43,171 bases of DNA, taken from positions 1 through 43,171 of the IMG/VR virus record IMGVR_UViG_2939121850_000002. One strand, written 5' to 3'. Shown here piece after piece: positions 3,720 through 35,169 of this stretch. Within the stretch, counting starts at the first letter, position 1. Each line of letters begins with the position of its first letter. The notes beneath the pieces are model-generated. The model was not told where the DNA came from. It saw nothing but the letters and a program-made list of their open reading frames with translations, and did no database searches. Both the position numbers and the translations under genes were made by a program. This stretch comes from a virus. Taxonomy: Duplodnaviria > Heunggongvirae > Uroviricota > Caudoviricetes.

Positions 3720-3939
3720 TGGTTGCCTCCTTTGCTCGCTGATTCCACTCTGCTCTAACCTCTGAATAAAAAATCGCGCAGTCATTTCCAGGCGCTGCAT
3801 ATTTGCTACCAGATTGAGCGCGACACGTACCGCATCGAACGAAATAGAATCGACCGCCAGAGCCATATTCAGGGTGATCTGCTTCGCTGGCAACGTGCGC
3901 TGCACCGCCACAGAATGGACATGGTAGTAGGTTGCTCAT
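3706..3939 (-). CDS. Lar-family restriction-alleviation-like zinc-ribbon protein (77 aa)
   Basis: N-terminal [12 protein letters not shown] ... CGTC motif as in the Lar family; ATGA start/stop overlap with the upstream gene. Confidence 0.5.
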   Translation of the reverse strand: MSNLLPCPFCGGAAHVASEADHPEYGSGGRFYFVRCGTCRAQSGSKYAAPGNDCAIFYSEVRAEWNQRAKEATSERY

Positions 3940-4496
3940 GAATGCACTCCCTTGTGAAGCTGTTCCGCACAATGCAGCAGGGCGTCAGTCGCCTCTTTCA
4001 CCGTAACGCAGTCGCCATCGTCCAGCCCGGACACCGACGCGTGCTTAACGAACGCCGCGCAAAGGTCATCAAACGCCTTAGCCCGGACTTCAGCCAGGAA
4101 AGCATCGGTGGCTGGGGTGTCTGATTGCATAGACTTTGCGCGATAATCATTCCACCCTCTTGCATATATGGGATTAACTTGCACCCCATCTTTTACGCAA
4201 TATGCCTGCCCTCCACGGTTGATAACCTTGATTTCGTCCATAGCGCCAGACTTCAGCCCCGCATTCTCCGCCGCCAGCGCCGAAAACTTCTCGTGTGCCA
4301 ACTTAACAGCCGCATCAGCCTGCTTAATTGACTCAATCGCTTTCTGGTGGTCTTCGGACAGAGCCGAAATCTTGGCCTCCGCTTCAGCAAATTTACGCAC
4401 CAGATATTCACCGTTTGTTTCGTTAACCTTTAAATCTCGTGGGATGCATTGACCTTTCAGAAAACCATCCATCTCAATTAGTGACATTTGTTTCAT
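3936..4496 (-). CDS. Hypothetical early-left protein (186 aa, coiled-coil N-terminus)
   Basis: Unambiguous ORF, translationally coupled to the Lar-like gene; no motif recognised. Confidence 0.45.
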
Positions 4497-4653
4497 TTCT
4501 TCCCACTCCGCAACATCGCATTCAGATATTTGTTTTGATTCACTGATGGAAAAGAATTTCTCTTAAGCAATTCCTCTCTCGATGGCATTGGCTTTACGCG
4601 TTGGAGAATAATCATTTCTGCCGGAAGAATGCCGGGATTGTATGCAAGTCCTC

Positions 4654-4944
4654 TCATGATTTACTCTCCACGAACTGGTCAATAGCCATGCTAAGTGACA
4701 CACCTAAAGTCTCGATATGTTGCTGAATATCCTGTAGCGTCTGCGCCTGAGATAACAGGATTTCACGGTTGCATAATTCTTTAACCAGATGCTCAAACTT
4801 GCTGTAATAACCGATACGGCTTAGTGTTTCTTTCCCTGCATTCTCGCCTTCTTTTATAATTCCTCTTTCGCTAAGAATCAGATCGTGTTTGGTTCCGGTA
4901 ATAACGTATTTTCCGAGGTCGATGTTTAGCTTCATTGTTTTCAT
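4654..4944 (-). CDS. Hypothetical early-left protein (~96 aa)
   Basis: ORF in the operon; the internal Met at 4944 avoids overlap with the upstream gene. Confidence 0.4.
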
Positions 4945-7440: not shown

Positions 7441-7752
7441 TTAGGCGGCTGATGTTTCTTCTTTCAGGCTTTCGAGATATTTACGTGGGTCGTCGTAACA
7501 TTGGCATTCGCTGTACCAATCCACCCAGCGATCAGTAAGCCCCATCTCTGATAAATCTTCATCGGTAAGGCTCTCATCCCACATCTCAAGGCCGTTAGCA
7601 TTGCAGTAATCAGGCTTGATGTTGTTGTCATACTGAAAGGCGTCATAATCAGCCAGTGCGTCCATCAGGCGAACACCCTCTTCAACACTTGCCACTTCTA
7701 CAATGAACGGCTTCATAGGTACTTGCGGGATATGCCAGACACGTAATTTCAT
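7441..7752 (-). CDS. Hypothetical acidic early-left protein (104 aa)
   Basis: Start at 7752 is preceded by GGAGGA; no family recognised. Confidence 0.45.
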   Translation of the reverse strand: MKLRVWHIPQVPMKPFIVEVASVEEGVRLMDALADYDAFQYDNNIKPDYCNANGLEMWDESLTDEDLSEMGLTDRWVDWYSECQCYDDPRKYLESLKEETSAA

Positions 7753-7927
7753 ATATCCTCCATCAAAAAAATTGCCCTCACACTGGAGGGCAAAGAAGAT
7801 TTCCAATAATCAGAACAAGTCGGCTCCTGTTTAGTTACGAGCGACATTGCTCCGTGTATTCACTCGTTGGAATGAATACACAGTGCAATGTTTATTCTGT
7901 TGTTTATGCCAAAAATAAAGGCCACCA

Positions 7928-8469: not shown

Positions 8470-8733
8470 TTACCTCGCTGTAACCTGCTTACTTGTACGA
8501 TGACCAGCTGCGAAAAGCGCAACTTCTGGCAGGCAGACAGTACCACCTTCAACTTCCTTCTGAAGCGTTCCGGCAAGCGAAATGGCTTTTGTTACGCGTG
8601 TACTGCATGTGCTATTTGCTACCCGGCGCGAAAGAGAAGCGTCCTGCATTGCCTGCTCACGTTGAGCCTGTCTGCGTGCTCTGCGGCGATTTCTGGCGTT
8701 ATCGTCAGCCAGATATGTAATGACTACTGTCAT
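8470..8733 (-). CDS. N: N-type transcription antiterminator (P22 gene 24-like)
   Basis: Arg-rich N-terminus (NARNRRRARRQAQREQ) and C-terminal RVTKAISLAGTLQKEVEGGTVCLPEVALFAAGHRTSKQVTAR as recalled for P22 gp24; first gene downstream of OL/pL. Confidence 0.6.
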   Translation of the reverse strand: MTVVITYLADDNARNRRRARRQAQREQAMQDASLSRRVANSTCSTRVTKAISLAGTLQKEVEGGTVCLPEVALFAAGHRTSKQVTAR

Positions 8734-8928
8734 GTTGACCTCCGATGATTGACTTTGGCGGTGACGCGCCGGGTGCTTATCTTCCGGTTGCCGTCGTGCA
8801 GCTGCACTTCACGTCACCCCAAAGCCAACTACTCTTTGGTTCCCGCATTTCGGCGGGACAATCCCATCAATGTTAAAGAGCCTGCCAATCTGTTCCGTTT
8901 GGCTTCCAGCGTCCTGCTGATGGCTAAA

Positions 8929-9015
8929 GAATACTGTAGGTATTTTATTGTGTAAATACCCAAGGTATTTATTTTTGATGAAATAATGATAAGCAAATGA
9001 ATACAAAGGATATTT
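8929..9015. promoter_or_regulatory. OL operator cluster / pL region: three AATAC-N5-GTATT sites
   Basis: GAATACTGTAGGTATTT (8929-8945), AAATACCCAAGGTATTT (8954-8970), GAATACAAAGGATATTT (8999-9015); same half-site as the OR sites. Confidence 0.55.
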
Positions 9016-9100
9016 ATTTTTTCGGTGTCTGCTTGTTCAGTGCTTTTTATGCGGGATATGTGAAGTGGATCCCGATAGCTATTGCTGCCGGGATTATAGG

Positions 9101-9469
9101 TTAGTCAGCGAAGGTTAAGACGAGAATTACCTTAATGATGTCTGCTACAACAGACACGGCCATAGATAAACCAAAGACGATCCAAGCCACAGTGATGTCT
9201 TCACTACCATCGTATAGAGTTCCGTAATCACTGGTGTAAGGCGTAAATGTCGCGCCTTGATACAATAGGTATAAGCTTGATCCATAGAGGATAAATGCAG
9301 ATATCCCTTGTATTGCTATGATCACCAGAATCATGAAACGAGCTGATCTATGCGCCCAAGCCTGGCTTATTTTTTCTGATAGAGATTTCGCAATAAAAGC
9401 ATGCGCTAAGCCGTAAATTGTCGAGATTGCCAACATCCCAAAAAAGCTTGCTATAGCGGTTCCAACCAT
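9101..9469 (-). CDS. Small polytopic membrane protein co-transcribed with cI (rexAB-position accessory gene)
   Basis: Hydrophobic segments consistent with 3-4 TM helices; ATG at 9469 is 18 nt after the cI stop (alternative TTG at 9490 overlaps the stop). Confidence 0.55.
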   Translation of the reverse strand: MVGTAIASFFGMLAISTIYGLAHAFIAKSLSEKISQAWAHRSARFMILVIIAIQGISAFILYGSSLYLLYQGATFTPYTSDYGTLYDGSEDITVAWIVFGLSMAVSVVADIIKVILVLTFAD

Positions 9470-9486
9470 AATCGCCCCTTGCGTGA

Positions 9487-10203
9487 TCAAACCAGCCTTA
9501 GTTTTGTCTCAATTGCAACGCCTATAATCTTGCAGTTTCCATTGATTGGCACGAGAGGCCATGCAGGATTAAGTCCCTTGAGGTATTTATTTCCGCCGTC
9601 GATTATCAGCTTCTTGAATGTTGCTTCGTTAGAGTCAGAAAGTTTTGCTATGACCAAGCTGCCGTTGATCGCCTCCCTTCCGGTATCGAAAAGAACGAAT
9701 GTTCCCTCTGGAATGCTTAACCCAACCGGTGCCGTCATTGAATCACCTTCCACTTTAAGCCAGAACGCATTACCTTGAATATGCGCGTCAGACTCAAGCC
9801 AAACATCTATGTCTTTAATGGTGTATGGTTCGCATGCTTCACACCACGAGCCAGCCTGGATACTGCTTAACACCGGATACCTCTTTCCTGCTCTGTATTC
9901 CCCTGCATACCTTACGTTGGCATCGCTCTTAAGGCTTTCTGCCTGTTCTGCAACCTTGGCAGCAATTGACTGGCTAAAATCAGCAATTGAGACTTGCAAC
10001 AGCCGTGCAAAACCAGATGCAACCTCAACGTTTAGCGCGTTTCTGCCATTAAGATAATGCCCTACCGCTCCTTGGGTGATACCCAGTTCATCAGCGATTG
10101 AGTATTGGGTTATTCCCAATTCTTTCTTTTTTGACTCATACAAAGCCTTAAGACGCTTAGCGTCTTCGAGCTGTTCTGTCGTCAGTGATTTTTTATTTTC
10201 CAT
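9487..10203 (-). CDS. cI: CI repressor (lambda cI-like HTH plus S24 LexA-type autopeptidase domain)
   Basis: TEQLEDAKRLKALYESKKKELGITQ ... FWLKVEGDSMTAP ... ATFKKLIIDGG; collinear with lambda CI; divergent from cro. Confidence 0.9.
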   Translation of the reverse strand: MENKKSLTTEQLEDAKRLKALYESKKKELGITQYSIADELGITQGAVGHYLNGRNALNVEVASGFARLLQVSIADFSQSIAAKVAEQAESLKSDANVRYAGEYRAGKRYPVLSSIQAGSWCEACEPYTIKDIDVWLESDAHIQGNAFWLKVEGDSMTAPVGLSIPEGTFVLFDTGREAINGSLVIAKLSDSNEATFKKLIIDGGNKYLKGLNPAWPLVPINGNCKIIGVAIETKLRLV

Positions 10204-10214
10204 AGCTTAATTCT

Positions 10215-10279
10215 AATAGCTAAGGTACTTAAACTAAAAATACCCTAAGTATTGATTACTTTGAATACCTGTAGTATTC
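10215..10279. promoter_or_regulatory. OR operator cluster with divergent pRM/pR
   Basis: AATACCCTAAGTATT (10239-10253), GAATACCTGTAGTATTC (10263-10279) and a weaker AATAGCTAAGGTACTT (10215-10230) in the 100-bp cI-cro intergenic region. Confidence 0.6.
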
Positions 10280-10309
10280 TTTGTTCATGGTTAATAACGG
10301 AGAGTGCAT

Positions 10310-12032: not shown

Positions 12033-13913
12033 ATGAGGCCAAGTGAACTTAGCGACCTGCTTTGGGCGCAGGTTGACAGGGTGGCTCCGCACCTGTTGCC
12101 AAACGGCAAGAAAGAGGGGCATGAGTGGGTTGCCGGTAACGTCAACGGTGACAAGGGAAACAGCCTTAAGGTCAACCTTAGCGGCAAGAAAAAATGGGCT
12201 GATTTCGCTGAGGGAGACGGCGGTGACATGCTTGATTTGTGGATGGCATGTCGTGGAATTAACCTGCATCAGGCTATGCAGGAAGCGAAAGCATTTCTCG
12301 GTATCAAGGATGACGATCACCATTTCGATGCCAAACGTGAGAAGAAATTCTCCAGACCTGATCGCAAGAAAATCGCCCGCTACGTTACCAGAACAGAATC
12401 CCATCTTGAGTACCTGCAATCGCGTGGCATATCGCCAGAAATCGTAAAGCGCTACGAGGTTGTCAGCGGCAAGGTGTGGAATGGAGAACGAGAACTTGAT
12501 GCACTGGTGCTTCCGTACAAACGCGATGGTGAGTTGTTGCAGGTCAAGCGAATCAGCACTGAGCGCCCGGACGGGAAGAAAGTCATTATGGCAGAAGGTG
12601 ATTGCGAACCTTGTCTGTTCGGATGGCAGGCTCTGGACGCTGGCGTGAGGGCGGTTGTACTTTGCGAAGGCGAAATTGATTGTATGAGCTATGCGCAATA
12701 CGGCATCTCGGCGTTATCCGTGCCGTTTGGTGGCGGGAAAGGCGCTAAGCAACAGTGGATTGAGTTTGAGTATCACAACCTCGACAGGTTTGAGGAAATA
12801 TTCATCTCGATGGACGTTGATGATGTTGGTCGTGAAGCCGCAAGGGAAATCGCAAGCCGACTCGGTGAACATCGTTGCCGTCTTGTTACTCTGCCGTACA
12901 AAGACATCAACGAATGCCTGATGAACGGTGTTACCGAGGATGAAATCTGGCAGTACATCGGCACGGCATCCTACTTCGATCCTGAAGAACTCTACAGCGC
13001 GCGAGAGTTTTACCAGGACACTATCAACGCTTTCTACGGCAAGCAGCAGTATCTGTTTAATCCACCGTGGGAATCTCTCGCAGATAAATTCCAGTTCCGT
13101 GAGGCCGAGTTGACGCTGGTCAATGGTGTGAACGGTCACGGAAAAACGGAGGTTGTCGGGCATATGGCACTTGAGGCAATGCGTCAGGGTGTGAAGACGT
13201 GCATCGCGTCACTTGAGCTGAAGCCAGGCATTCTCCTTAAGCGACTTACCCGTCAGGCAACGTGCTGCAAGATGCCGCCAGTGCTGGAAATTGACTCTGC
13301 ATTTAAATTTTATGACGAAAGACTTTGGGTGTTTGGCCTGACCGGAACGGCGAAAGCCGACAGGCTGATCGAAATATTCGACTACGCTCGCCGCCGATAC
13401 GGCATCCAGTTATTCATCATCGACAGCCTGATGAAATGTGGCATAGGCGACGATGACTATAACGGGCAGAAGGCGTTTGTTGACTCGATTTGCGACTTCA
13501 AAAACAAAACAAACTCCCACGTCATTCTCGTTACTCACTCGCGAAAAGGAGACAGCGAAGAAAAACCAACCGGGAAAATGGACGTAAAAGGCTCTGGAGC
13601 GATAACAGACCTGACAGACAACCTTTTCATCATCTGGCGTAACAAGGCTCGCGAGAGAGCGTTACAGAGAGTTCAGAGTGGTGAAAAGATGTCAGAGAAG
13701 GACGAACAGCTACTGGCATCTCCGGCATCTGTTTTGATGCTTGAAAAACAACGTAACGGTGAAGGTTGGGAAGGTGGTGTCCCGTTGTTCCTTGACGAGC
13801 AATCGCACCAGTTCCTGCAACTTGAATCAGGATCGCCATATAGCTACATCGCCAATATGCCGAAATCGGAATATGACGAGGCGTGGCGACAGGAAAACGT
13901 GACAGAGTATTAA
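12033..13913 (+). CDS. Bifunctional DNA primase/helicase (Toprim domain plus RecA-fold helicase)
   Basis: Toprim motif VVLCEGEIDCMSY; Walker A GVNGHGKT; Walker B FIIDSLMK; occupies the lambda P / P22 gene 12 position. Confidence 0.8.
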   Translation: MRPSELSDLLWAQVDRVAPHLLPNGKKEGHEWVAGNVNGDKGNSLKVNLSGKKKWADFAEGDGGDMLDLWMACRGINLHQAMQEAKAFLGIKDDDHHFDAKREKKFSRPDRKKIARYVTRTESHLEYLQSRGISPEIVKRYEVVSGKVWNGERELDALVLPYKRDGELLQVKRISTERPDGKKVIMAEGDCEPCLFGWQALDAGVRAVVLCEGEIDCMSYAQYGISALSVPFGGGKGAKQQWIEFEYHNLDRFEEIFISMDVDDVGREAAREIASRLGEHRCRLVTLPYKDINECLMNGVTEDEIWQYIGTASYFDPEELYSAREFYQDTINAFYGKQQYLFNPPWESLADKFQFREAELTLVNGVNGHGKTEVVGHMALEAMRQGVKTCIASLELKPGILLKRLTRQATCCKMPPVLEIDSAFKFYDERLWVFGLTGTAKADRLIEIFDYARRRYGIQLFIIDSLMKCGIGDDDYNGQKAFVDSICDFKNKTNSHVILVTHSRKGDSEEKPTGKMDVKGSGAITDLTDNLFIIWRNKARERALQRVQSGEKMSEKDEQLLASPASVLMLEKQRNGEGWEGGVPLFLDEQSHQFLQLESGSPYSYIANMPKSEYDEAWRQENVTEY

Positions 13914-18220: not shown

Positions 18221-18544
18221 ATGAAGATGCCAGAAAAACATGACCTGTTAGCCGCCATTCTCGCGGCAAAGGAACAAGGCATCGGGGCAATCCTTGCGTT
18301 TGCAATGGCGTACCTTCGCGGCAGATATAATGGCGGTGCGTTTACAAAAACAGTAATCGACGCAACGATGTGCGCCATTATCGCCTGGTTCATTCGTGAC
18401 CTTCTCGACTTCGCCGGACTAAGTAGCAATCTCGCTTATATAACGAGCGTGTTCATCGGCTACATCGGTACTGACTCGATTGGTTCGCTTATCAAACGCT
18501 TCGCTGCTAAAAAAGCCGGAGTAGAAGATGGTGGAAATCAATAA
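18221..18544 (+). CDS. S: Holin S (class I, dual-start MKM)
   Basis: [34 protein letters not shown]... essentially identical to lambda S as recalled. Confidence 0.9.
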
Positions 18545-31760: not shown

Positions 31761-33146
31761 ATGGCTACGTGGCAACAGGGTATTAATTCTGGTGGTTTTC
31801 TGGCTGGCATCGGTACGCAAAATGAGAATGCGCCAAAGGCAAGCGACATTAACGCAACGCTTGGTCTGATCCGCGAAAACAATGAACTGGCTCGCTCAGG
31901 TGCAAATAACGTTGGCCTGACCGCGTTACGTGGTCTGGCTGGAGTTGCTGATATTTATAAGCAGGAACAGCAACAGAAAGCGATTAGTGCGTTCAATAAG
32001 GTTCACGCTGATGCATGGGCTTCTGGTGATCCATCGGGACTATTTAAGTTTGCCCAGGAAAATCCAGCGTTTGTTGCACAGGCACAACAGGCGTTTTCCG
32101 GTCTTAATGAGCAGCAACGCAACGATATGGGCGATTTAGCCATGAGAGCTAACGTCGCTCTTTCTCAGGGACCGGAAGCCTACAGTAAATTCATTACTGA
32201 CAACAAGGACAGGTTAAATCGCGTGGGTGCGAATGCTGACTGGATGATTCAGACAGGTATCCAGAATCCAGAGCAGCTATCACACATGCTGACTACTATG
32301 TCTCTCGGTGCACTTGGGCCAGAAAAGGCGTTTGCTGTTCAGGATAAGATGGTTGGTCGCCAGCAGGAGCAGCAAAGAATTAACGAAACCATTCGCAATA
32401 ATGACATGACGAATGCGAGGGCTATTAGGGGGCAAAACCTTTCCTATCAGTCTGCAATGACCGGACACGGACTTGCAGCAGAAAGACTGGCACTTGATAA
32501 GCAGAAATTCGGTTTTGAAGTACAACAGGCACAAAAAAAGGCCGAGGAACTTATTAATGCTGCGCCAAAATTATCAGTGAACATGGAAAAGGCTATAGAA
32601 AAATCAGCAGGTGATGCGGCAGCTAGTCGTAATGCTGCCGATTCAATGACAACGCTCGCTGACACGCTGGAGAGGGAGAAGCCAACTCCTGGTTTGTTCG
32701 GTAACGCTGAAAATATGTTCTCTAAGCTTACGGGGCAAGATAACTACCTCCGAGATATGCGGATTAGATTCAACCAACTAGCCAATGCGCAGGCAACCAA
32801 GCTTCTCCCTCCAGGCCCTGCATCAGATAAGGATATTGAGTTTGCAAGGAAAGGCATTCCAAGCGAAACGGATAATCCAATGGTCATGGCTCGATGGTTA
32901 AGGGGTATGGCAAAAATGGAAAGTAATAACGCGAAGTTCAACGAGTTTAGGTCAGAGTGGATGAGTGCAAACGGCAGCCCAGGACAATCTGATCGCAACC
33001 GAAACATCATGGGGATGGATGTTAAGAAGGGTGAATCATTGAACTCTGCGGCAAAACGTTTTCTTTCCTCAAGTTATGGCGATATCCAACCTCAACAGCA
33101 ATTGTCCGATGACGAATTAATTAGCAAATATCTCGGAGAGCAGTAA
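31761..33146 (+). CDS. Ejection protein (P22 gp20-type)
   Basis: 461 aa; synteny. Confidence 0.7.
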
Positions 33147-34963
33147 TGGCCTATAGTCGCGAACAGTTGATGACGGCGTTAAGGAATGCTGATGCTGCCG
33201 GCGATACTGAGGGAGCACGTCGCATTGCTCAGATGCTGTCTTCTGGTGATCAATCCACTCAAAACCAATCGCAGCCAGAAGAACAATCTCTGGTAGGAAA
33301 AGCTACTGACTGGCTCACTGGTGGTCAAAGTGCAGGGCAAATTGCAGAACAGGCAGGTCGTGGTCTGGTAAACATACCATTTGACGTATTGCAGGGTGGC
33401 GCAAGTCTGATTAATGCAATCAGCCAGGGGCTTGGCGGCCCCAAGGTTTTGGATGATGTCTATCGTCCAGTCGATCGACCGACAGACTCTTACGCACAAG
33501 CCGGTGAAACAATTGGTGGGTATTTAGTTCCAGGAGTTGGAACGGCAGGAAGCATGGCTATTGGCTCACTGGCAGAGGCCGCAAATCAGAAAGGCGATTT
33601 CGCACAAAATGCAGCTAAAAATGCCGGAGTTAACCTTGCCGCTCAGGGGGTTCTTTCCGCAGCAGCAAAGGGAATAGGGCGTGGAATTACTGCTGTTCGT
33701 GGCGAAATATCACCAGCAGATCAGCAATTGCTCAAGCGTGCCGCTGCGGCAGATGTACCAGTTATGACATCGGATGTAGTTCCTCCAAAAACAAAACTTG
33801 GCAATCAACTGCAGGGTTACTCAGAAGGAGTCATAGCTGGTACTGGACCAATGAGATCCGCACAGCAGGATGCTAGAACCAAGCTTGTTAATCGCTTCAC
33901 CGAAAAATACGGCGACTACGATCCATCTGTAGTCGTTGATAGTCTAAAGTCAGGCGTTGCAAGGGAAAAATCGTTAGCCAAGTCAAAACTAAACAACCTG
34001 TCAGGAAGAATGGTTGGAAAGCCAGTTGATACAAATGGCGCCATAAGAGCTATCGACGGAGCAGTAAACGAACTTGGGAAACTTAAAGGTGTTTCTGACA
34101 CCCAGACCATTTCTGCGCTTAATGATTATAAGAATGCCATTCAGGAGATAACAAATGGAGATGATGCCTTTGAGTTACTTGATAAGCTGAGAACTCAGTT
34201 CCGCATTGACGTAAAAGGCGATCGTACAGTTCTGCCATCAATGTCGCAAACAATGGTCGACAGGGTCTACAACTCGCTAACCAATAGCCTTAGTAAATCT
34301 ATAGCAAAAGGACTTAGCCCAAAAGATGCTTCAGCATGGAGAGCGGGAAAAGCTGATTATGCAAAAATGGCAACACATGCAACTCAAACGCGCCTTAAAA
34401 ACGTTCTAAACAAAGGAGATTTAACTCCAGAGGCTGTAAATACCATTGTGTATGGACAATATGGGTCAGATATAGCTCGATTGTACGGGAAACTCGATCA
34501 AAAAGGTAAAGACATGCTAAGGGCGGCATATATCAGCAAAATAGCTGACAAGGTAGGTGACAGCCCTCAGAAAATGATGACCGAGCTTGGCAAGCTGCAA
34601 AAACAAGCAAATGGTCAGGTGTTTAAAACTGTATTTGGTGGGAAGAACGGAAAAGAGATAGAGGGGATGTTATCTATTCTCGATGCTACCAAAAGAGCAT
34701 CTGAGGCTAATGTTGTGACGAAGACTGGCATGACACTCGCGCCTTTGGTAAGGGTTATTGGTAACCTAAAAACCGGAGGCGCGCTATTGGCTGGGGAAAC
34801 AGGGATTGGCCTTATGTCGAGGGTTTATGAAAGCCCTATGGCCAGGAATGCGTTCTTACGTCTGGCAAACACCAAAGCAGGAACGCCAGCCTATGAAAGA
34901 GCATTAAGTAACGCTGCAAATGCCATCAGACCGCTGCTTGCCACTGAGGCAACACAGCAGTGA
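33146..34963 (+). CDS. Ejection protein (P22 gp16-type)
   Basis: 605 aa; synteny. Confidence 0.7.
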   Translation: MAYSREQLMTALRNADAAGDTEGARRIAQMLSSGDQSTQNQSQPEEQSLVGKATDWLTGGQSAGQIAEQAGRGLVNIPFDVLQGGASLINAISQGLGGPKVLDDVYRPVDRPTDSYAQAGETIGGYLVPGVGTAGSMAIGSLAEAANQKGDFAQNAAKNAGVNLAAQGVLSAAAKGIGRGITAVRGEISPADQQLLKRAAAADVPVMTSDVVPPKTKLGNQLQGYSEGVIAGTGPMRSAQQDARTKLVNRFTEKYGDYDPSVVVDSLKSGVAREKSLAKSKLNNLSGRMVGKPVDTNGAIRAIDGAVNELGKLKGVSDTQTISALNDYKNAIQEITNGDDAFELLDKLRTQFRIDVKGDRTVLPSMSQTMVDRVYNSLTNSLSKSIAKGLSPKDASAWRAGKADYAKMATHATQTRLKNVLNKGDLTPEAVNTIVYGQYGSDIARLYGKLDQKGKDMLRAAYISKIADKVGDSPQKMMTELGKLQKQANGQVFKTVFGGKNGKEIEGMLSILDATKRASEANVVTKTGMTLAPLVRVIGNLKTGGALLAGETGIGLMSRVYESPMARNAFLRLANTKAGTPAYERALSNAANAIRPLLATEATQQ

Positions 34964-34980
34964 CTAAATGCCATGGATGG

Positions 34981-35169
34981 TTATTTCCTTAGCACATGAA
35001 ACAATGTTTGCTTTAATTCCACCCATACAATTATGACCACTATAGACAGACAAAAGAAACTGAATGCATTGGCATCACGATCGAAACCTTCTCCGGCACT
35101 AAATCCGTAAAAGGTCATAAAAAATATAAAAATTGCGCACTTTGCAACGTTTACAAATTTTTTCTTCAT
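34981..35169 (-). CDS. Small membrane protein (62 aa), convergent with gp16
   Basis: ATG at 35169 preceded by a strong AAGGAGG; hydrophobic segments; AT-rich. Confidence 0.45.
   Translation of the reverse strand: MKKKFVNVAKCAIFIFFMTFYGFSAGEGFDRDANAFSFFCLSIVVIIVWVELKQTLFHVLRK

Follow-up and report, generated by a model that had tools for sequence, protein, structure and literature searches.

What is the function of the small gene that follows the cI repressor gene in phages with HK620-type immunity? We address this question in a 43,171-nucleotide stretch of viral DNA (IMG/VR virus record IMGVR_UViG_2939121850_000002, positions 1 to 43,171; hereafter, the window), a P22-like prophage with a tailspike, a DNA-transfer protein, Ant, and an integrase. 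The cI immunity operon of this lambdoid prophage has two genes, cI and, after it, the gene in question, hkaS. We propose that its product, HkaS, is a one-component inner-membrane superinfection-exclusion protein. This proposal is made by analogy with known systems, and we hold it to be a serious possibility somewhat short of an even chance. An earlier note on this DNA, written from the sequence alone, had drawn attention to a hydrophobic protein encoded directly downstream of cI in the position that lambda gives to rexAB, and the placement is borne out. The gene begins 17 nucleotides (nt) past the cI stop codon on the same strand, and it lies between cI and the operator OL in the orientation of cI, as do its precedents rexAB in lambda and bstA (PMC8585504).

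Where does the gene start, and has it been seen before? The minus-strand open reading frame (ORF) at 9101-9490 comprises 129 codons when counted from a TTG. The earlier note gave a length of 122-129 amino acids and took the gene to be translationally coupled to cI; the lower figure stands and the upper one does not, and the overlap that suggested coupling is not at the start codon of the gene. We assign the coding sequence to 9101..9469 on the minus strand, a 369-bp gene encoding 122 amino acids plus the stop codon, with an ATG start at 9469-9467. The TTG at 9490, which overlaps the cI TGA as TTGA, was rejected as a start. The ATG is favored because the 122 positions of the PHROG 6534 profile fall on residues 8-129 of the 129-residue reading, because the GenBank coding sequences of hkaS in HK620 and mEpX2 are 369 nt long, because the homologues all start at the ATG with MVG or MIG as their first residues, and because the Salmonella homologue has an in-frame TAA directly 5' of the ATG. 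The gene has a strong Shine-Dalgarno sequence of its own, AAGGGG at 9480-9475, followed by a 5-nt spacer and the ATG. From the cI stop to the hkaS start, the junction reads 5'-TGA TCACGC AAGGGG CGATT ATG-3'.

Judged by its sequence, the ORF is hkaS of HK620, a gene deposited in GenBank without an assigned function and overlooked by the earlier note; it is thus not new. The window protein is identical to HK620 HkaS (AAK28867, product "unknown") at 121 of 122 residues and to the mEpX2 hypothetical protein XSB41217 at all 122, and it matches PHROG 6534 over its full length (E=2.9e-79, profile positions 1-122 of 122). At the nucleotide level, positions 8700-10300 share 99.8% identity with mEpX2 and 99.1% with HK620, HK630, and others. 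In HK620 the gene occupies the same place, between cI and tIMM/OL, and nothing substantive differs; the P22-like prophage that houses the cassette in the window differs from mEpX2 in its other modules. We also note that residue 20 is Val in the HK620 reference HkaS (L001:2902-3270) and Gly in the six lineages compared here, the window included.

How would hkaS be expressed? The first gene of the operon, cI (9487..10203, minus strand), encodes a 238-residue repressor with HTH_3 and Peptidase_S24 domains (Pfam; PF00717 at 5e-24, PF01381 at 8e-10) and is annotated as cI in HK620 and mEpX2. The 17-nt spacer that separates it from hkaS (9470..9486, minus strand, as read from the sequence) contains the AAGGGG and leaves no space for a terminator, and a promoter scan found no sigma-70-like promoter inside cI. 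Co-transcription of cI and hkaS is therefore a good inference from the sequence, and pRM/pR would drive the transcript. By our own reading, 6 nt separate the end of a TAGAAT −10 element from the cI ATG, a spacing that suggests a leaderless cI mRNA, like that of lambda. With a leaderless cI and the strong Shine-Dalgarno sequence of hkaS, translation of hkaS may equal or exceed that of cI. A gap of 17-20 nt with a Shine-Dalgarno sequence is present in every lineage, the sequence being AAGGA in the other lineages. Among the 60 viral contigs that carry nearly identical cI genes, three spacer variants occur, all of which keep AAGGGG, and the polymorphism shifts the distance from the Shine-Dalgarno sequence to the ATG by up to 2 nt. 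In a tally of this spacer (9470-9486) across IMG/VR loci L016-L080, AAGGGGCGATT was seen 28 times, AAGGGGCGCTT 20 times, AAGGGGGACGCTT three times, and AAGGGGAGATT once.

Seven nucleotides past the hkaS stop codon, the minus strand encodes an RNA hairpin (9069..9094; −14.1 kcal/mol, z=−2.9), which is a probable 3' end or stabilizer of the cI-hkaS transcript. Stable hairpins that differ in sequence lie about 10-25 nt past the hkaS stop codon in six of six lineages (z −1.8 to −5.5), and in Buttiauxella the hairpin has the form of a canonical terminator, U-run included. Beyond the hairpin lies the tIMM region (8989..9019, minus strand; HK620 annotation mapped to the window), which forms the left boundary of the hkaS cassette, and then the pL promoter (8928..8970, minus strand), identified by a promoter scan (TTTACA-17-TATTCT), by its repeats, and by the HK620 annotation, with OL1 at 8930-8945 and OL2 at 8954-8969. 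On the other side of cI, the OR region (10204..10278, no strand assigned) holds operator copies at 10239-10253 and 10264-10278, with OR3 placed at about 10214-10230 from the HK620 annotation. The HK620 record annotates tIMM, OL1-3, and pL downstream of cI and OR1-3 upstream of it, in agreement with the operator repeats of the window (AATACnnnnGGTATT) and its pL-like promoter. A third operator-like copy (AATACAAAGGATATTT) is found at 9000-9015, within the HK620 tIMM and 45 nt from OL2; the HK620 record puts OL3 not there but at the equivalent of 8976-8992. This operator-like motif is conserved about 95 nt past hkaS in all lineages.

Is there a partner gene? The earlier note described a single small gene, and the 17-nt gap to cI is indeed too short for a partner. 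Between hkaS and OL, no further ORF was found with the exception of a non-conserved 35-residue ORF on the opposite strand. This very hydrophobic ORF (8997-9104, plus strand; MNTKDIYFFGVCLFSAFYAGYVKWIPIAIAAGIIG) is convergent with hkaS, the two stop codons overlapping, and it appears as a hypothetical protein in some phage records. As a candidate partner of hkaS it was rejected, its frame being broken by stop codons in four of the four other lineages (Hafnia-type, Salmonella, metagenomic, and IMG/VR); judging from the sequence, it is probably a chance ORF.

What kind of protein does hkaS encode? The earlier note called it a polytopic hydrophobic membrane protein and suggested a prediction of its topology, and three lines of analysis agree with that description. 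Kyte-Doolittle analysis gives three hydrophobic segments (residues 1-27, 42-68, and 90-122). The AlphaFold2 model, built from an 8-sequence alignment, is confident (mean predicted local distance difference test score 89.3, predicted template modelling score 0.76) and contains helices at residues 2-29, 31-38, 41-74, and 89-121 and a beta-hairpin at residues 78-86. Finally, the first loop carries a net charge of +4 to +5 in all six lineages and the second a net charge of −1 to −4. Together with the positive-inside rule, these charges place the N-terminus and the hairpin in the periplasm and helix 31-38 and the C-terminus in the cytoplasm. HkaS is thus predicted to be a three-helix inner-membrane protein with an N-out/C-in topology.

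Conservation across the six lineages, which share 35 invariant residues, is unevenly distributed over this predicted architecture. The first transmembrane helix (TM1; residues 2-27, 9389..9466, minus strand; Kyte-Doolittle, AlphaFold2, six-lineage alignment), which would run from periplasm to cytoplasm, bears a small-residue ladder, G3-(A/G)7-(G/A)11, and the invariant residues A5, S8, S16, Y19, and G20. Small-residue ladders of this kind occur in oligomeric channels. The cytoplasmic loop (residues 28-44, 9338..9388, minus strand; charge table, AlphaFold2), which includes the short amphipathic helix 31-38, is the most conserved region, with 9 of 17 positions invariant, among them K33, Q36, W38, H40, A43, and R44. 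TM2 (residues 45-71, 9257..9337, minus strand; Kyte-Doolittle, AlphaFold2, alignment) begins with the invariant F45 and contains an invariant intramembrane Q54. The periplasmic loop (residues 72-93, 9191..9256, minus strand), an acidic, Tyr/Thr/Gly-rich beta-hairpin with its AlphaFold2 strands at 78-86, is the least conserved region, with only 4 of 22 positions invariant. TM3 (residues 94-121, 9107..9190, minus strand; same three sources as TM2) contains invariant intramembrane D110 and K113 and ends in an invariant C-terminal LTFAD.

How widespread is the gene, and how has it evolved? A word-indexed search of 5.8 billion proteins returned 12 clusters at 90% identity, all of them close relatives, and when 1.84 billion 50%-identity representatives were searched exhaustively by profile, one full-length cluster plus a 44-residue fragment came up; neither protein search found remote relatives. 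The gene is present in 145 of 5,426 complete E. coli genomes (~2.7%, including Shiga toxin (Stx)-converting phages), always at full length and at least 95% identical, and in a single one of 185,579 species-representative genomes, that of a Buttiauxella. Salmonella enterica and Hafnia paralvei are further source names. Judged from these sequence searches, the HkaS family is a narrow orphan. The homologues are 52-98% identical and 121-122 residues long, and they keep their position. Wherever the locus was examined (HK620, mEpX2, Salmonella, Hafnia-type, metagenomic, and Buttiauxella), the order is cro (divergent), cI, a 17-20-nt gap, hkaS, hairpin, OL/pL, and N.

Between lineages, the cI proteins are 85-88% identical and the HkaS proteins 50-61%. 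The proportion of synonymous differences (pS) between the window and L009 is 0.48 for cI and 0.45 for hkaS, and for the remaining pairs the two genes both reach saturation, at ~0.8; the corresponding nonsynonymous proportion (pN) in hkaS exceeds that in cI about fourfold. Equal synonymous divergence indicates that cI and hkaS share one history as an old pair, in which hkaS tolerates more amino-acid change. The ratio of nonsynonymous to synonymous substitution rates (dN/dS) of hkaS is 0.13-0.2 between lineages. In the 60 viral contigs, hkaS, intact in every copy, occurs as 23 protein variants. There, hkaS segregates 24 nonsynonymous and 20 synonymous changes, with a ratio of nonsynonymous to synonymous diversity (piN/piS) of 0.26, and cI segregates 6 and 31, with a piN/piS of 0.02, so that the nonsynonymous-to-synonymous ratio differs between the two genes (Fisher p=0.0005). 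Since the replacements in hkaS are mostly conservative hydrophobic or small-residue swaps, we do not read the relaxed constraint as positive selection.

Is hkaS bound to its immunity region, or is it replaceable cargo? In lambdoid phages, mosaic diversity has a hotspot between cI and N, where lambda carries rexAB and BTP1 carries bstA (PMC8585504). In our comparison, relatives of the window's cI at 76-78% identity (L079, L081-L095) lack hkaS. Their nucleotide homology to the window stops at the cI stop codon (9487-9489), and in L079, as in the hkaS-bearing L078, it restarts at 9020, at the operator-like site in tIMM. From these two breaks we conclude that hkaS and its hairpin (~9021-9486) are a discrete unit, a cassette placed in a slot whose cargo varies. 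The stk gene of phage 933W lies in a comparable slot. Other occupants differ: L082 has a convergent 128-residue ORF with a signal-peptide-like N-terminus (3748-4134, minus strand; PHROG 2651), and L079 has ORFs of 131 residues (4016-4411, plus strand; PHROG 13858) and 68 residues (4614-4820, minus strand; PHROG 3975). None of these alternative slot ORFs has a PADLOC match, and their PHROGs carry no functional label. The GC content of the cassette is ~43%, compared with 46-49% in cI, and no anomaly of base composition sets it apart.

The cassette travels with a particular repressor module rather than with a particular virion. It is carried by HK620 (a podovirus, Lederbergvirus), mEpX2 (HK97-like) and HK140, both Hendrixvirinae, the lambda-like HK630, and Stx-converting phages, and hkaS always lies directly after one lineage of the cI C-terminal domain. 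In Buttiauxella (L096:1833-2869), a chimeric cI has an N-terminal DNA-binding domain, and a neighboring cro, unrelated to those of the window, followed by a highly similar C-terminal domain and then hkaS at 56% identity; the recombination joint lies near cI codon 105, at window position ~9889. Retention of hkaS through this swap indicates that the gene is not tied to operator specificity. HK140 and the Stx2c phages carry insertions beyond OL/pL toward N that leave hkaS unaffected, those in HK140 coinciding with a small additional ORF that lies between nutL and N.

To what known proteins can HkaS be compared? The earlier note saw no similarity to RexB, in agreement with our profile comparison (hhalign probability 0.6%; no Pfam or PHROG RexB match at E of 1 or less), and SieB, another family that it proposed to search for, also proved unrelated in sequence. 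P22 SieB gave an hhalign probability of 0.1% with no Pfam or PHROG match, and P22 SieA one of 0.3% with no PHROG match, the P22 type alone having been compared directly. The window's own holin candidate (ORF 18221-18544) gave an hhalign probability of 0.2%, and no Pfam holin match was found. A sequence-profile search of the PDB returned no match, and Foldseek with the HkaS model returned nothing below E=0.29 among viral models or E=0.42 in the PDB. The sole Pfam line, TssN at E=0.043, falls far below its cutoff and was rejected. Likewise, homology to a characterized non-defense protein was found neither in Pfam, NCBIfam, and the PDB nor in the holin comparison.

In architecture and context, HkaS does have counterparts. 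SieA, an inner-membrane protein of 162/164 residues with three predicted transmembrane domains, is both required for exclusion and enough to bring it about (PMC10883804). As a lone small inner-membrane protein with, by prediction, three helices, HkaS finds in SieA what we consider, by analogy, its best architectural counterpart; the two differ in location, sieA being found at 13336-13830 in immI after gene 16 and hkaS behind cI. In the P22-like prophage BTP1, bstA likewise lies directly downstream of cI, presumably under the cI promoter, as a single-gene system, and BstA is reported to localize to sites of phage DNA replication and to cause abortive infection (PMC8585504). The likeness here is one of a single gene directly behind cI in a P22-like prophage; nothing in this description marks BstA as a small membrane protein, and HkaS has no PADLOC match.

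We propose the following model. Co-transcribed with cI from pRM (and pRE), hkaS would be made continuously in lysogens, and its translation would probably initiate better than that of the apparently leaderless cI. The most likely mechanism of exclusion would be interference with genome delivery across the inner membrane, like that of the unrelated P22 SieA and T4 Imm, with the variable periplasmic hairpin facing incoming ejection or tape-measure proteins. By analogy, HkaS, which is predicted to be almost entirely membrane-embedded and has neither a soluble domain nor a partner gene, resembles one-component injection blockers more than sensor-effector abortive-infection systems, and the low conservation of its periplasmic loop fits an interface toward challengers from outside. 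That HkaS specifically blocks genome delivery, a narrower claim than exclusion as such, we put forward only tentatively.

Several observations weigh against exclusion as the function of HkaS. Scans of Pfam and NCBIfam assign it to no family, a search of the 5,027 defense-protein profiles of PADLOC-DB 2.0 returned no family at E of 1 or less, and PHROG returned only family 6534, which has no annotated function. No mention of hkaS in a phage context was found in the literature searched, to which the HK620 genome paper did not belong. Expression in lysogens is deduced from the position of the gene. The best-conserved parts of the protein, loop 1 and the C-terminal end of TM3, lie toward the cytoplasm, and this distribution would fit a function directed at the host, or one that faces the cytoplasm, equally well. 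Because the gene moves with the immunity module across virion types, its target would not be bound to one injection machinery. The relaxed constraint may reflect the exchangeability of hydrophobic residues and not an arms race. Finally, at one in 185,579 species-representative genomes, the family is very rare, unlike broadly successful defense genes. Conservation on the cytoplasmic side and at Q54, D110, and K113 keeps alive both a host partner and a pore, which we consider in turn.

HkaS could act on the host by altering an inner-membrane process (a transporter, a stress response, or colicin or antibiotic uptake) that raises the fitness of the lysogen; for lambda lysogens, bor and lom are fitness genes that act at the outer membrane. 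We regard lysogenic conversion of this kind as unlikely, if well worth keeping in mind. The strongest conservation, being cytoplasmic-side and intramembrane and not periplasmic, fits a conserved host partner, and probable constitutive expression from the immunity operon and the independence of hkaS from virion type and operator specificity would both suit such a role. However, HkaS shows no similarity to any host-protein family or regulator in our searches, its rarity across genomes speaks against a generally useful fitness factor, and the few characterized cargoes of the slot have so far been anti-phage (rexAB, bstA, and stk).

A rather doubtful alternative is that HkaS oligomers form a gated pore, an abortive-infection effector that functions as RexB does yet lacks a RexA-type sensor. 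Upon disturbance by a superinfecting phage the pore would open, collapse the membrane potential, and abort the infection. The slot and orientation are those of rexAB, and RexB, too, is a small polytopic inner-membrane protein that is presumably produced in lysogens. Moreover, the invariant polar and charged residues within the membrane and the conserved TM1 ladder are features suited to a pore, for which the conserved cytoplasmic amphipathic helix could serve as sensor or gate. RexB, however, has 144 residues and four transmembrane helices, compared with 122 residues and three predicted helices in HkaS, and the two are not related in sequence. Nor does hkaS, set 17 nt from cI, have a rexA-like partner, and the protein has no soluble domain that could sense an infection.

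It is improbable that HkaS serves the phage's own life cycle by tuning the lysogeny-lysis switch or the timing of lysis, whether by stabilizing CI, as an antiholin, or as an aid to induction. A role of RexA and RexB in the switch of their own phage has been proposed, and the strict and ancient linkage of hkaS to one lineage of the cI C-terminal domain, maintained despite a swap of the DNA-binding domain and cro, would be expected of such a function. The linkage is, however, fully accounted for by a physical distance of 17 nt, and hkaS is absent next to cI relatives that are 76% identical along the entire protein. Class I holins such as lambda S (S105) also have three helices in an N-out/C-in arrangement, which HkaS resembles in its predicted topology and in its size. 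Unlike them, HkaS has no holin family match and no charged C-terminal tail (it ends in LTFAD), and its gene, part of the immunity operon, is far away from the lysis cassette. A holin expressed constitutively would kill the lysogen.

We see little likelihood in a further idea, that HkaS is a self-sufficient one-component membrane module for defense or switching that co-evolved with the cI C-terminal domain. One possible variant is a pore without a sensor, or a block of injection, that has no relation to any known Sie or Abi family; more boldly, HkaS might communicate with CI itself, so that events at the envelope (superinfection or membrane stress, for example) would be coupled to induction or to the stability of the repressor. 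Lastly, a spurious or decaying ORF, to which the missing annotation, the tiny family, and a constraint weaker than that of cI might point, is effectively refuted by conservation: the gene is intact in 60 of 60 viral contigs and full length in 145 of 145 E. coli genomes, its length of 121-122 residues is kept through saturated synonymous divergence together with its position, its dN/dS is well below 1, 35 residues are invariant in six lineages, and the AlphaFold2 fold is confident.

What would follow if HkaS is an exclusion protein? Few parts of a lambdoid prophage are transcribed as strongly as the stretch between cI and OL. As cargo, a small membrane protein that follows the repressor is of an expected type and no surprise in kind. 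HkaS would then represent a new sequence family within a known kind, the one-component membrane exclusion proteins of prophage immunity operons, with relevance for the host range of therapeutic phages in E. coli. If HkaS does something else, the known range of cargo in this slot would be widened. In either case hkaS is a compact and experimentally easy candidate: E. coli has served as the host for growing HK620, mEpX2, HK630, and HK140, and K-12 MG1655 is on record for mEpX2.

Finally, we note three other ORFs of the window, all on the minus strand. The ORF at 7441-7806, which matches PHROG 1510 (E=5.6e-58; family label "superinfection exclusion"), has an mEpX2 equivalent annotated as Ea10. 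The ORF at 34981-35169, which encodes 62 residues with two hydrophobic segments (PHROG 21338, which has no annotated function; no PADLOC match), follows a gene-16-like DNA-transfer gene (33146-34963) in the slot that sieA occupies in P22, and may be another small membrane exclusion candidate. Between this sieA-like slot and ant, distant from the head genes, the 178-residue ORF at 36092-36628 matches a head-maturation/ClpP-like protease (PHROG 94, E=5e-21).

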